Source of the DNA: a bacterium | GTDB taxonomy: Bacteria; Patescibacteriota; Minisyncoccia; UBA6257; GWB1-50-10 | DNA: 64,000 bases | Direction of reading: 5' to 3' | NCBI GenBank assembly: GCA_021815205.1 | Contig: JAKAHD010000001.1 | Coordinates: forward strand, 89,247-153,246 | Shown: piece after piece, positions 4,283-54,138 of the stretch | How the letters are laid out: every line of letters starts with the position of its first letter | Position numbering within the stretch: position 1 is the stretch's first letter | Position numbers and translations under genes: made by a program | Notes under the pieces: model-generated | Seen by the model: the letters and a program-made list of their open reading frames with translations, nothing else | Databases searched by the model: none | What the model was told of the DNA's origin: nothing

Positions 4283-4489
4283 AAATCCTAAATTCGAAAT
4301 CCTAAATCCTAAACAAATTCAAAACACGTGTTTCAGTCATTGTGATTTTGTATTTCGGTCATTATTTAGGATTTGGTGTTTGAAATTTGAAATTTTTATT
4401 CAAGTCCAAATGGAGTAATTTTGAAATTTAAAATTAAAAGACATTTAAAATTGATTAAAAATTTAAAATTGTGAATTAAAAATTAATAT
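4283..4489. repeat. AT-rich heptad inverted repeat arrays (AAATCCT/AGGATTT, then AAATTT-type)
   Basis: aaatcctaaattcgaaatcctaaatcctaaac...atttaggatttggtgtttgaaatttg; related copy 36346-36546. Confidence 0.75.
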
Positions 4490-5620
4490 ATGATAAAAAG
4501 GATTGTGTTAACAGGCGGGGGAAGCGGGGGGCACGTGTTCCCGCTCGTTGCCGTCGCGGAGGAGCTTAAGAAGATCCCCGCGGACCTCGAACTGCATTAT
4601 GTGGGTCCAAAAAGTCCCTTGAACCAGGAGTTTCTGGAGCGAGATATTCCCGTCCGCACCATCTTGGGAAGCAAGATCAGGCGATATCTTTCTTTCGGGA
4701 CTATTGTTGATATTCCGAAATTTTTTATAAGTCTCCTGCAGGCGCTCTTTTACCTCTACCGCATCATGCCGGATGCGGTGTTCTCGAAGGGCGGTACGGG
4801 TGCGTTTCCCGTGGTCTTCGCCGCGTGGTGCTACCGGATTCCCGTTGTGATTCATGAGTCGGATTCGGTTCCTGGTCTCCAGAATCGTCTTTCCGGAACA
4901 TTCGCGAAAAAGATCTGCATCTCATTCTCCGGCGCCGCGGATTATTTTAAGAAAGAGAAGCTTGTGTTCACGGGGAATCCGATTCGTGAAGCGTTGTTGC
5001 ACATGGCAGAAGCGCAGATGCCGCACGAGAAGGTAGCGATCGGGTTCAAGGACGAGGCGCCGCTTCTTTTCATCGTGAGCGGATCGCAGGGCGCCGCGCG
5101 CATCAACCGTTTTCTATTTGATAATTTCGAGCTCCTTCTTCAAGAGTTCCAGATATACCATCAGGTCGGTCCTTCGAATACAGAAGATGCCGAGTTTTTT
5201 GCCGCATCCGCACTGCAATCCTTCGACGAGAACATGAAGCGGCGTTACAAGATGGCGGGGTTTCTTTCGCTTCGCGAAATGCAAGCCGCGTACGCCGCCG
5301 CCGATATCGTGCTTTCGAGGGCGGGCGCGAGTGGCATCTTCGAGATTGCGGCGTTTGGAAAGCCCTCACTACTCATTCCACTCCAAGGATCGGCGAATGA
5401 TCATCAGCGGCTCAATGCGTATGAGTATGCGAAAGGAGGCGCTGCGGTTGTCGTTGAGGAATCGAACCTTACGCCGCACGTCGTTGTGGATCAGGCGGTT
5501 CGTATTCTGAAGGATAAGAACCTTTACGGATCCATGAGTGCGGCCGCGAAGGCGTTCTCGAAGCCCGATGCCGCGAAGATGATTGCGCGGGAGCTTACCA
5601 CACTGCTTCGTCTGGCATAA
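4490..5620 (+). CDS. murG: Undecaprenyl-PP-MurNAc-pentapeptide GlcNAc transferase
   Basis: TGGGSGGHVFP, HESD, TGNPIR, GSQGA, RAGA, HQRLNA. Confidence 0.96.
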   Translation: MIKRIVLTGGGSGGHVFPLVAVAEELKKIPADLELHYVGPKSPLNQEFLERDIPVRTILGSKIRRYLSFGTIVDIPKFFISLLQALFYLYRIMPDAVFSKGGTGAFPVVFAAWCYRIPVVIHESDSVPGLQNRLSGTFAKKICISFSGAADYFKKEKLVFTGNPIREALLHMAEAQMPHEKVAIGFKDEAPLLFIVSGSQGAARINRFLFDNFELLLQEFQIYHQVGPSNTEDAEFFAASALQSFDENMKRRYKMAGFLSLREMQAAYAAADIVLSRAGASGIFEIAAFGKPSLLIPLQGSANDHQRLNAYEYAKGGAAVVVEESNLTPHVVVDQAVRILKDKNLYGSMSAAAKAFSKPDAAKMIARELTTLLRLA

Positions 5621-8146: not shown

Positions 8147-8310
8147 TTAGGAAGGGGAGGGTGTTATGACGCGTCATAACACCCCTTAGTAGACCCCCAC
8201 ACCTATACTAGGTTGTGGTGGTAAACCAGTGCCATTAAGATTATTAGTCTACCAATGGCGTATATAAGAGTTGCGGATGTTGCATTGCAAGATTGAATTT
8301 GCGGTATTTT
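8147..8310. repeat. Dispersed composite repeat (26-bp palindrome + CCCCACACC hairpin + conserved tail), copy 1
   Basis: GGGTGTTATGACGCGTCATAACACCC at 8159-8184; homologous block at 48398-48645. Confidence 0.85.
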
Positions 8311-8313
8311 TAT

Positions 8314-8343
8314 TTGACAATTTAGTGTAAGAGTTGTTACTAT
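8314..8343 (+). promoter_or_regulatory. Sigma70-type promoter
   Basis: TTGACA-18nt-TACTAT; GGAGG precedes ATG 8394. Confidence 0.6.
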
Positions 8344-8393
8344 ATTTCTCAAGTTTTAGTTTGCATTTTTAAAAATAAACCCATGGAGGATGT

Positions 8394-8783
8394 ATGGGAT
8401 CCCGAACAAAAAAGCGGTTGGTGCTATTATTGTTAATAATACTAGTTGCCGTAAGCGAAGTAATATTGGCCATAAGAACCATATGGCATGTAAGCTGGTG
8501 TACAGAAATATTTTCCGTGGCCTATAGCACGATAATGTTTATAATCGGGGTTGTGTCATGGATGCTTGTGGCGTCGCATTATTGGTTAGGACAATACAAG
8601 TGTATTGATCGTATGAGGTTTTTTACTGTGTTACTGGTAATCATCGCGATAGTGCTCAGCAGTACAGGAAGGATACTGCCATTTTATGTGGCTTTGGTAC
8701 TCAACGCGCTTTTATGGATAATTTTTTCCATAAAGTTCTTTTTTGAGCTTGTATGGAATTCCAGGGGAGATTGGAGCAAATAG
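8394..8783 (+). CDS. Hypothetical 4-TM membrane protein, AT-rich
   Basis: Hydrophobic ORF with promoter and SD. Confidence 0.65.
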   Translation: MGSRTKKRLVLLLLIILVAVSEVILAIRTIWHVSWCTEIFSVAYSTIMFIIGVVSWMLVASHYWLGQYKCIDRMRFFTVLLVIIAIVLSSTGRILPFYVALVLNALLWIIFSIKFFFELVWNSRGDWSK

Positions 8784-51828: not shown

Positions 51829-54138
51829 CTATTTTTTGAGAAGTTCTTTGAATAGATGCGGCGGGATGCGGACGTGTGCGCGTGCCTTGAGGCGCTCCTT
51901 CCCTTTTTTCTGCTTCTGCCACAGCTTCATTTTTCTCGTCCGGTCCCCTCCGTTTTTCCCAAAGTTGCCGAGTTCTTTCCGGAGCGCGGGGATGTCTTCG
52001 CGTGCGATCACTTTTCCGTGGTCCTTCGCCTGAATCGGCTGAGCGAACTGCTGTTGCGGGAGCGTCTTCTTCAGGCGCTCGACGAGCTCACGCGCTTCGT
52101 ATTGCAGCGTGCTCTTCGGAAAGAAGCGCGAGAGCCCCGGGATGATTTCTCCCGCAATCGCGATGTCGATCTTTACGATGTCGGCCTTCATGTAGTCCGC
52201 GAGCTCATAACTGAACGAAGCGTAGCCGGCGGTCGCGGATTTCAACTGGTCGTCAAAATCACTTACGAGTTCCGCAAGCGGCATGATTGCCTTGATTTCT
52301 GTTTGGTTTTGGAACGTCTCCGTCATGATGTTCGAGAATCTGAATTTGTTCTGGAGCGGGTAGATATTATTCAGAAATTCCGGCGAGGTGAGGATTACAA
52401 TCTTCACCATCGGTTCCCAAATCGCTTCGTATTCTTCAGGGATTTCTTCGGGCTTCACAATCTCGATCCACCCCCCTCTAGTTTTCACTTTATAAAGCAC
52501 CGAAGGAAATGTACTCACGGTCGTAACATGGAATTCGCGCCGGAGGCGTTCCGCGGTAATCTCGAAGTGAAGGTGCCCCAGGAATCCGACCTTAAATCCC
52601 CGCCCCAAGACCTCGTTCTGGTCCGGTTCGATATGGAGTGCCGAGTCATTGAGCCGCAGTTTATCGAAGCTTCGCTTCAGAAGATCATACTCGTCGTTGT
52701 CCTCCGGGTAAAAGGACACGAACACAACCGGTTGCGGCTCTTGGTAGCCGTGCAGCGCAAACGTTTTTGGATTCTGGCATTTGGATTTTGAGCTTACTAT
52801 CGTGTCCCCTATCTTCACGAGCGCAATATCCTTGATGCCGGTCGCGATGTACCCGATCTCTCCCGTTCCGAGTTTCTGTGTCGCGGTCAAGGGCGGAGCA
52901 AAAAAACCAACTTCCTTTATCTTCGAGGAAGCGCCGGATGCCGCAAGCGTAATAATGTCCGTTCCGTTTACCGTGCCTTCGAAGACGCGCACCGACGCGA
53001 TCACCCCCTTGTGATCGTCGTAGAAGGAATCGAAAATGAGTGCCCGCGCTGGGGCCGCCGATACTCGCTGATTTTGAGCTGATGCACGCTGATCCGTTTC
53101 TATCTCGACCGGTGAAGGTATTCGTTCAATGATTACTCGAAGCAGATCAGAAACCCCTTCTCCCGTTTTTGCGGAGACCATCATTATTTCATCGTCGGAT
53201 ATGTTCAGAAGTTCCGCGACCTCGTGCCGGATGCGCGCAAGCCCCTCCGTGTCTCCCCGCGCTTCGAGAATATCGATCTTATTTACCGCGCCGATGATCG
53301 TAAGTCCCGCACTGCGCGCCAAGTGAAGGTTTGCAAGGGTCTGTGCCTGGATTCCTTGGGTTGCGTCCACAAGGAGAATACCGCCCTCGACGGCCGCCAA
53401 GGCGCGCGACACCTCGTACGAGAAATCGGAGTGCCCCGGAGTATCAATCAAGTTGAGGATATATTCCTCAACTTGCGCGGAAGGTCGCGGAAGGGACGCG
53501 GAATCGCGCGGAATTTCACGGGCTGTGTCGTATACGACTCTTTGTATGTCGAGAGTCTTCGTTCCGAAATTAATGAGTAGCGCAAGTTTGTAGTCTGACC
53601 CCTTGAGATAGCTCCATAGCTGTTCTGTCTGTGGGCGGCCTATTTCCGGTAATGCTTTCAGCTCGATAAGTATTTTCTCTTCAATTATAAAATCCGGTTG
53701 GTAGGAACCGATTTTCTTGCCGTCGTAAAAAATTCCAATGTTTTTTTCGCTTTCGAACCGCAGGTTTCTCTTCTTGAATTCTTCTGCCAGGGCATTATGA
53801 TAGACGATCTCTTTATGTCCTAGACCTAGCCTTTTTCTTACCTCGAAAGCGGCGCCGCGTATTTCATAGGTAATGGTTTCGTATAGTAATTTACTTTCTG
53901 CGTCATTCCGCGTATCATTCTGCGTCATTCTGCGGTGAGGATGATAACGCATCCTCACAGGGGCCATTTTAATGGTGATCCCCCGCTCCCGTTCGAGTTC
54001 AAGCTGATCAAGATATTGTTCCTGCATGTGGCGCGTATCCACCGTGCCCGTAATTTCAAGGAACCGATCCGCGAGGGTTGACTTCCCGTGATCGATATGG
54101 GCGATGATGCAGAAATTTCTGATGTAGACTTCGTTCAT
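51829..54138 (-). CDS. lepA: Elongation factor 4 with an in-frame GxxExxY nuclease insertion
   Basis: IRNFCIIAHIDHGKSTLAD, RERGITIK, DTPGH, GFLG.LH, GGDRTRKMKL. Confidence 0.95.
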   Translation of the reverse strand: MNEVYIRNFCIIAHIDHGKSTLADRFLEITGTVDTRHMQEQYLDQLELERERGITIKMAPVRMRYHPHRRMTQNDTRNDAESKLLYETITYEIRGAAFEVRKRLGLGHKEIVYHNALAEEFKKRNLRFESEKNIGIFYDGKKIGSYQPDFIIEEKILIELKALPEIGRPQTEQLWSYLKGSDYKLALLINFGTKTLDIQRVVYDTAREIPRDSASLPRPSAQVEEYILNLIDTPGHSDFSYEVSRALAAVEGGILLVDATQGIQAQTLANLHLARSAGLTIIGAVNKIDILEARGDTEGLARIRHEVAELLNISDDEIMMVSAKTGEGVSDLLRVIIERIPSPVEIETDQRASAQNQRVSAAPARALIFDSFYDDHKGVIASVRVFEGTVNGTDIITLAASGASSKIKEVGFFAPPLTATQKLGTGEIGYIATGIKDIALVKIGDTIVSSKSKCQNPKTFALHGYQEPQPVVFVSFYPEDNDEYDLLKRSFDKLRLNDSALHIEPDQNEVLGRGFKVGFLGHLHFEITAERLRREFHVTTVSTFPSVLYKVKTRGGWIEIVKPEEIPEEYEAIWEPMVKIVILTSPEFLNNIYPLQNKFRFSNIMTETFQNQTEIKAIMPLAELVSDFDDQLKSATAGYASFSYELADYMKADIVKIDIAIAGEIIPGLSRFFPKSTLQYEARELVERLKKTLPQQQFAQPIQAKDHGKVIAREDIPALRKELGNFGKNGGDRTRKMKLWQKQKKGKERLKARAHVRIPPHLFKELLKK
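53473..53937 (-). mobile_element. GxxExxY PD-(D/E)xK nuclease cassette with inverted repeat arrays
   Basis: GHKEIVY, PDF..E.K, QxxxY, LLINFG; CGCGGAA x4 (53476-53513) versus TTCYGCG x4 (53896-53934). Confidence 0.8.

Follow-up and report, generated by a model that had tools for sequence, protein, structure and literature searches.

We analyzed a 64,000-nt stretch of DNA (hereafter the window) from contig JAKAHD010000001.1 of a patescibacterial genome (GCA_021815205.1), in which the lepA (EF4) gene carries a long in-frame insert, here called the cassette, that encodes a GxxExxY-family nuclease between two arrays of short inverted repeats. The host open reading frame (ORF) is stop-free throughout, and its product scores 640 bits in a search with the TIGR01393 lepA profile (cut-off, 534 bits). 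The features of the locus, numbered from the first position of the window, are the following.

51829..54138, (-) strand: lepA (EF4) ORF of 769 amino acids (aa) with the cassette in frame; the only lepA in the 735-kb genome (ORF call, profile search)

53464..53943, (-) strand: cassette of 480 nt or 160 codons (H66-E225), replacing six codons of same-genus alleles (allele alignment)

53539..53877, (-) strand: GxxExxY / PD-(D/E)xK nuclease domain with E110, D149, E159, K161, Q173 and Y177 (PF13366, aa 88-200)

53896..53934, (-) strand: 5' arm of four CGCRGAA units, translated as the spacer RRMTQNDTRNDAE (sequence)

53476..53513, (-) strand: 3' arm, inverted relative to the 5' arm, with four units that read TTCCGCG in the mRNA sense; translated as a spacer (sequence)

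53935..53958, (-) strand: 5' junction hairpin, in which a 6-nt loop (R64-Y65) separates host V61-R62-M63 (53950-53958) from its exact 9-nt inverted copy, H66-P67-H68 (53935-53943) (sequence, fold)

53449..53475, (-) strand: 3' junction hairpin with a perfect 11-bp stem and a 5-nt loop, in which the cassette end (53465-53475) mirrors host I227-L228-N229-L230 (53449-53459) (sequence, fold)

Between the LepA motifs ERGITIK and IDTPG there are 185 aa here and 31 aa in 3/3 same-genus genomes, a net gain of 154 codons; 160 codons therefore stand for six. On the solved EF4 chain 5imq_B the insertion point falls between residues 69 and 73, where the G domain makes a short turn, and the junctions (marked by a slash) read Y/HPH on the 5' side and QVEE/Y on the 3' side. 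The insert matches TIGR04256 (GxxExxY) over aa 89-202 (E = 7e-34; 116.7 bits, cut-off 35) and PF13366 (PDDEXK_3) over aa 88-200 (112.2 bits, cut-off 22), and has the motifs G107-H-K-E110-x-x-Y113, P148-D149, E159-x-K161 and Q173-xxx-Y177. On both curated cut-offs and on these motifs the predicted domain qualifies as a member of the GxxExxY family; its named relatives are Paceibacterota, Parcubacteria and Wolfebacteria records. An initial annotation, made from the sequence alone, had proposed an intact GxxExxY nuclease in frame in LepA, adding about 155 codons at a normally short turn. The profile matches and allele lengths bear this out: all predicted catalytic residues are present, and GHKEIVY, PD(149), E159-x-K161 and QxxxY lie where that annotation placed them. 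The four-unit, mutually reverse complementary arrays that it described as translated spacers can be read directly from the sequence (on the forward strand, CGCGGAA x4 at 53476-53513 and TTCYGCG x4 at 53896-53934). The two fold-back hairpins at the junctions had been overlooked.

Over 17-18 nt the arms show 82-83% complementarity, and their pairing closes off the insert in a single long stem with interruptions (minimum free energy -144 kcal/mol, z -2.4, with 0/100 shuffles as good). In the predicted fold this arm-closed stem is accompanied by one hairpin per junction, each junction being paired to host codons. The cassette thus has terminal inverted repeats of an imperfect and periodic kind. 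Arrays of the CGCRGA type number 43 in the genome, compared to 0-4 in ten triplet shuffles, which is more than chance.

In lepA, both ends of the cassette repeat the neighboring host codons in inverted form. We scored the junction stems of 34 filled and 31 empty distinct lepA alleles, and found a score of at least 7 at the 5' junction in 25 filled and two empty alleles, at the 3' junction in 30 filled and six empty alleles, and at both junctions in 24/34 filled and 0/31 empty ones. Among alleles fetched after the stem test was set, the corresponding counts are 5/6 (5') and 6/6 (3') for filled and 1/9 and 1/9 for empty sites; these later alleles are included in the totals except for L181, and L043, a near-empty allele of 11 aa, was binned as short. 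A cassette end pairs better with its own host half than with swapped halves in 31/34 (5') and 30/34 (3') filled alleles, and it tracks synonymous host codons, at least eight different V-R-M codon strings having an exact mirror. The ends are inverted rather than direct copies of the flanks, and both loops often contain TA. The mirrored ends are a possible trace of the mode of insertion. Two specific schemes were considered and set aside. Perfect spacer-less palindromes occur at 6/34 and 4/34 junctions (ten in all, with fixed centers), and a hairpin-cap (P-nucleotide) footprint was dropped as unproven: other alleles differ at the central bases, and TA is favored by the conserved Tyr codons. A target hairpin duplicated in direct orientation would fit lepA in part, but not LeuRS or GatB, in each of which the two flanks differ from one another.

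The cassette is sparsely distributed. All three same-genus lepA genes (3/3) have an empty site, and in an even draw from the order, where lepA was found in 140/146 genomes, only 8/140 frames reach 740 aa, this genome included. Six of these long alleles were not previously known, and all six have a cassette at the identical site, so that 8/8 are filled. Alignment with relatives thus separates empty from filled alleles. The initial annotation had named a fixed, vertically inherited fusion as a finding that would undo its proposal; what we see instead is empty sisters, together with repeat-flanked insertions elsewhere. Thirteen other alleles carry short in-frame inserts from several repeat families at the cassette site, and one (L025) retains the 3' end of the cassette without the nuclease, as an array-only relic. 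The lepA turn is an insertion hotspot. Short in-frame inserts of other repeat families were noted in L015, L019, L021, L026, L028, L035, L042, L186, L189, L191 and L192, and many short inserts at the turn have mirrored junctions scoring 10-19. Two near-identical filled alleles, L100 and L103, differ in a TAG stop inside the nuclease of L103, a natural loss or an assembly error.

Nuclease and host trees disagree. The inserts nearest to ours (79%-83% identical, in matches selected by insert similarity) sit in hosts that are 55%-68% identical, whereas the nearest hosts (82%) are empty. In approximately unbiased (AU) tests on quick trees of 24 filled alleles, with groups chosen from prior trees, host clades are rejected when imposed on the nuclease tree (p = 0.0046 for the trio that includes this genome; p = 1.5e-5), as are nuclease groups when imposed on the host tree (p = 1.2e-4 and 0.015). 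Nucleases cluster by host gene (17 changes, 54 when shuffled), with the GatB and LeuRS copies nested within the LepA nuclease clade. On the host tree, the lepA of the window falls together with the three empty sister alleles (support 100), adjoining a filled allele with a close nuclease.

These trees bear on whether the fusion might be domesticated, the nuclease serving the host (for example, by LepA delivering it to the ribosome) and being inherited mostly vertically with losses. The nuclease is under strong purifying selection, to judge from a pN of 0.10-0.22 at saturated pS and from the predicted catalytic E, D, E, K, Q and Y, which are retained in 62/62 in-frame copies. Some alleles co-diverge with their hosts (L084/L085/L134; L001/L047), and a block of 18 filled alleles stands on the host tree, under biased sampling. 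Against this, only about 6% of the order is filled, the nuclease and host trees conflict, the domain is found free as well as in nine or more unrelated hosts, an array-only relic exists at the lepA site, and a benefit at the level of the protein would leave the DNA arms and mirrored junctions without a function. We consider domestication unlikely.

The wider family extends well beyond lepA. A GxxExxY match is present in 84/401 genomes of the class, and the loci that we collected hold 129 distinct GxxExxY domains, of which 62 are embedded in the longer frame of a host gene and 56 stand free, the remaining 11 being cut or of other kinds. The in-frame hosts are LepA (28), RecG (at two sites), GatB (three), LeuRS (two), ValRS, RtcB, transketolase and a family-4 glycosyltransferase, with an AsnB-like protein and a membrane protein read from sequence only. 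Inverted repeated 6-mers flank 47/62 in-frame and 38/51 free domains (85/113 together), compared to 8/1000 random sites; direct-orientation 6-mers flank two in-frame and six free domains, and distant free domains are flanked by other repeat words. The expectation that GxxExxY domains would be found in frame in other hosts, between inverted arrays, is supported by these counts. Much the same evidence, namely the empty sisters, the rarity of filled frames, the tree conflict, the other hosts, the free copies and the excess of arms, upholds the initial annotation's view of a mobile unit of nuclease plus arms that parasitizes housekeeping genes; the cassette may also be autonomous, as that annotation had it.

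In a genome with 43 arrays of similar kind and GxxExxY loci standing free at four places, the possibility has to be considered that repeats caused one of these genes to be wrongly assembled into lepA. Those four, however, are only 34%-52% identical to the LepA insert and fall in other clades, the exact protein is recorded on five contigs, and the same junction build recurs in 34 distinct alleles from other assemblies. Among the 120 long homologues listed, our own protein included, 112 are LepA fusions of like build (the others are four GatB and four LeuRS fusions), and misassembly is therefore very unlikely, to the point of being negligible.

The initial annotation had left two fates for the insert, toleration as a looped-out domain or removal from the RNA. 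In the 34 filled alleles the frame runs uninterrupted from one host part through the insert to the other, with one further allele containing a stop and one cut by a contig end, and 13/13 short inserts at the site are likewise in frame. A Met inside the insert is found in only 7/28 LepA inserts. With the insert as query, Rfam returned three matches at E up to 10, all at chance level and none to an intron family, and only about 70 and 75 nt flank the nuclease ORF within the cassette. The junction stems are 96% Watson-Crick, with six G-U pairs to five A-C, and the sense strand is the more stable in 16/34; neither a G-U excess nor a sense-strand preference is seen in these 34 alleles, at low power. 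Three metatranscriptome contig sets of the same study, in which the host organism does not show, gave only short matches to conserved LepA motifs of other organisms. Because the frames are open and RNA-strand and G-U biases are absent, read-through appears to be favored over RNA excision, and of the two fates the looped-out domain is the one that gains support.

Excision similar to that of an intron or an intervening sequence (IVS), in which the arm stem and the hairpins at the junctions would direct cutting and religation, or a ribosome hopping over the insert, would account for the closed stem with both junctions paired to exons, for nuclease-less copies in helices of 16S rRNA and an RNase-P-like RNA, and for the metagenomic allele with a stop inside its nuclease. 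Yet joining at the two loops would leave a 24-aa segment, below the 27 aa between ERGITIK and IDTPG in the shortest empty allele seen, and a cut at the stem base would remove conserved host codons; neither would seem to yield a LepA of natural length. Together with the open frames and the lack of an intron match, this makes the RNA route improbable.

As for the nuclease, its affinities are weak. A PDB search returned only endonuclease I of the T7 type (3cae and 1m0d; E = 0.13 and 0.76), PF05367 (Phage_endo_I) is matched by 5/12 family members (best E, 0.011), and the PHROGs entry phrog_945, "endonuclease," by 11/12 (best E, 0.0013), all weak. The ESM Atlas, with PF13366 left out, gave two unnamed clusters at 0.75 and no named lead. 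T7 endonuclease I cuts cruciforms and branched DNA. Given arms that fold the insert out, hairpins at the junctions, targets unrelated in sequence and this likeness to endonuclease I, we prefer a selfish, unspliced cassette that is carried as an extra LepA domain and would spread between lepA alleles by structure-directed DNA homing, via a predicted branched-DNA nuclease; we put the probability of this reading at roughly 0.5. A selfish non-splicing cassette moving by any DNA route at all is quite probable. In the scheme that we envisage, the LepA fusion would be made and tolerated, the nuclease relying mostly on the start codon of its host. During recombination between a filled and an empty allele, the insert would be folded out by its arms as a stem between the junction hairpins; the predicted, weakly T7-endonuclease-I-like nuclease would nick the branch, and in the course of repair the empty allele would acquire a copy of the cassette. 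The mirrored junctions might arise, and be re-perfected, through template switching or fold-back copying at the cassette ends. Nuclease-less arrays would be deletion derivatives moved in trans, and rare jumps would seed new host genes.

Homing could instead be classical, a sequence-specific endonuclease cutting empty lepA and double-strand-break repair copying the cassette in, with arms and hairpins as by-products or aids. Clustering of the nucleases by host gene resembles that of intein and intron alleles, and the codons 3' of the cassette in the window match filled distant alleles, not the same-genus empties, over about 4-6 codons, as in a short co-conversion; LAGLIDADG genes in rRNA insertions of the candidate phyla radiation (CPR) show site-clustered homing, according to the available part of PMC11270868. 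A sequence-specific enzyme fits poorly, however, with a GatB cassette nuclease that is 75% identical and LeuRS nucleases at sites without evident shared sequence, with arms that accompany most domains, the free ones too, and with a DNA identity of only 55%-66% between candidate donor and recipient lepA genes. We regard classical homing as doubtful, though to be taken seriously.

Several observations weigh against structure-directed homing, or limit what the data say for it. Outside lepA the mirrored junctions are patchy: hairpins in the top decile of host windows are seen in RecG at 10/21 (5') and 1/21 (3') junctions, in GatB at 3/3 and 0/3, and in free-standing copies at only 5/38 and 2/38, which is no enrichment. 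Within lepA, a subclade (L080, L084, L085 and L134) lacks the 5' stem. Since codon constraints can explain the perfect spacer-less palindromes, these show no hairpin-cap footprint. The likeness to endonuclease I is below normal significance, and the QxxxY motif is also reminiscent of RecB/Cas4-type nucleases. On the side of the trees, a gain here and a loss in the three sisters are equally parsimonious, as the next relative, L047, is filled and has a close nuclease. There is partial vertical signal (Spearman 0.33), and synonymous sites are saturated, so that transfer cannot be dated. The p-values given above overstate the case, because kin are non-independent and filled alleles outside the order were found using the insert as query.

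How does the cassette compare to known systems? With inteins it shares a nuclease in frame in LepA, RecG, tRNA synthetases and RtcB, an allele-clustered phylogeny, and filled and empty alleles with lateral spread. Unlike them it has no LAGLIDADG or HNH domain, it has inverted arrays in its DNA, it also exists free-standing, and it sits in a variable turn rather than an active-site motif. The LepA protein has no match to the Hint or Intein_splicing families, in a library that detects a true intein in another locus (L143), and the cassette junctions lack an N-terminal C/S, a C-terminal HN and a +1 C/S/T, the first two in agreement with the initial annotation. No transposase domain (DDE, HUH, DEDD or serine) was found in the insert, PDDEXK_3 being its sole domain. 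RAYTs are HUH tyrosine transposases, and the REPs that go with them are extragenic. REP/REPIN-RAYT systems resemble the cassette in having an enzyme gene between inverted short repeats and enzyme-less palindromic copies throughout the genome, but here the enzyme is of the PD-(D/E)xK type, with no HUH (Y1) match, and the unit enters reading frames. T7 endonuclease I is alike only weakly, over the PD...ExK core, and is a free phage junction resolvase. Free-standing GxxExxY proteins (TIGR04256, PF13366) are of the same family, and are annotated as plain proteins.

Two further systems come close. The Rickettsia palindromic elements (RPEs), as described in the available part of PMC10969869, are intragenic MITEs (miniature transposable elements with inverted repeats) of about 150 bp, non-autonomous and translated, that lie in frame in unrelated housekeeping genes and also between genes. 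The nuclease-less arrays of our genome, in frame in unrelated genes, resemble RPEs as so described (we claim no sequence relation) and satisfy a definition by size and content (no enzyme ORF, under about 200 bp) that excludes the cassette, whose 480 nt encode a conserved nuclease, which is site-clustered in lepA, and whose ends mirror host codons. CPR rRNA insertions carry LAGLIDADG, GIY-YIG or IVP ORFs in the available part of PMC11270868, whose main text has 0 occurrences of the term PDDEXK. As far as that source goes, these IVS and intron insertions share with our elements the phylum, a closing stem, and forms with and without an ORF at one site, including array-only 16S copies here; the cassette differs in lying in protein genes, in keeping the frame and in having no intron fold.

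The initial annotation's claim of a class distinct from inteins, group I/II introns and insertion sequence (IS) elements stands, in that the cassette fails the intein, intron, IS transposase and RAYT tests that we ran. In the published literature searched, which took in few subscription journals and no supplements, we found no account of the cassette, of the in-frame form or of the inverted-arm context, works that name GxxExxY dealing with other matters. By analogy, the cassette would resemble in its working both the homing nuclease of an intein, minus the splicing, and a coding palindrome of the RPE type in autonomous form. More tentatively, it may stand for a distinct selfish class, in which the inverted arms and the host-mirroring ends fold the cassette out of a heteroduplex and a junction-cutting PD-(D/E)xK nuclease, homing by DNA structure and not by sequence, nicks the empty strand, so that essential genes are entered in frame and splicing is dispensed with. 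The nuclease would then be what mobilizes in-frame palindromes in Patescibacteria, and a change of the ends alone could redirect it.

Known selfish elements that enter essential genes, such as introns and inteins, remove themselves, and we know of no identified enzyme that mobilizes the in-frame palindromes called RPEs. The cassette, unlike either, appears to stay in the protein and to bring its own nuclease. The unannotated GxxExxY family thereby gains a testable role, as a candidate for the enzyme that spreads coding palindromes, and the mirrored junctions offer a concrete substrate design for assays. The cassette also explains a mis-annotation, several LepA and GatB fusions being labeled merely "GxxExxY protein" by their sources.

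Nuclease-less relatives are widespread in this genome (coordinates are preceded by our contig or locus label). CGCRGA arrays lie in frame in LeuRS (C11:34765-34856), where the 5' junction hairpin is about 19 bp and the 3' one 8 bp, in the amidase GatA (C4:20651-20750) and in RecG (C4:25298-25334), and others are intergenic. Array-only elements also occur near the 5' end of 16S rRNA (C1:31545-31629) and twice in an RNase-P-like RNA (C12:53025-53389; E = 6e-8, below the gathering cut-off), and their terminal hairpins are alike (TGTCA..TGAC / GCCA..TGGCA). Since it extends over 2132 nt, the match to 16S holds further insertions.

Some minor observations concern other loci. An intergenic subfamily with the ends TAGAAGCRGA...TCYGCTTCTA, which thus starts and ends with TA, has 53 ends genome-wide (e.g., C3:36111, C5:15551 and C8:8108-8714); in 13/53 the TAG closes a frame of at least 100 codons, compared to 6% for TAGs overall. 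Ends of this subfamily also bound two of the free GxxExxY loci, both on C8, and at C8:14326-14687 a GxxExxY gene is split over two frames (a frameshift and one TAG) between intact repeat ends. In one C8 cluster (L045), free GxxExxY genes are interspersed with three small ORFs (L045:4-492, 4438-4803 and 8309-8668) that we take to resemble four-helix-bundle or 23S IVS proteins. The RtcB gene at L143:2-3361 holds a true LAGLIDADG intein plus a separate in-frame GxxExxY cassette. Finally, lepA has an in-frame TGA in five genomes of family f7 (G030:C47, G448:C9, G469:C13, G489:C59 and G509:C5); in L043 the sequence around the TGA reads ETG*VATG, where others have an aromatic residue, a possible case of TGA recoded as Trp.

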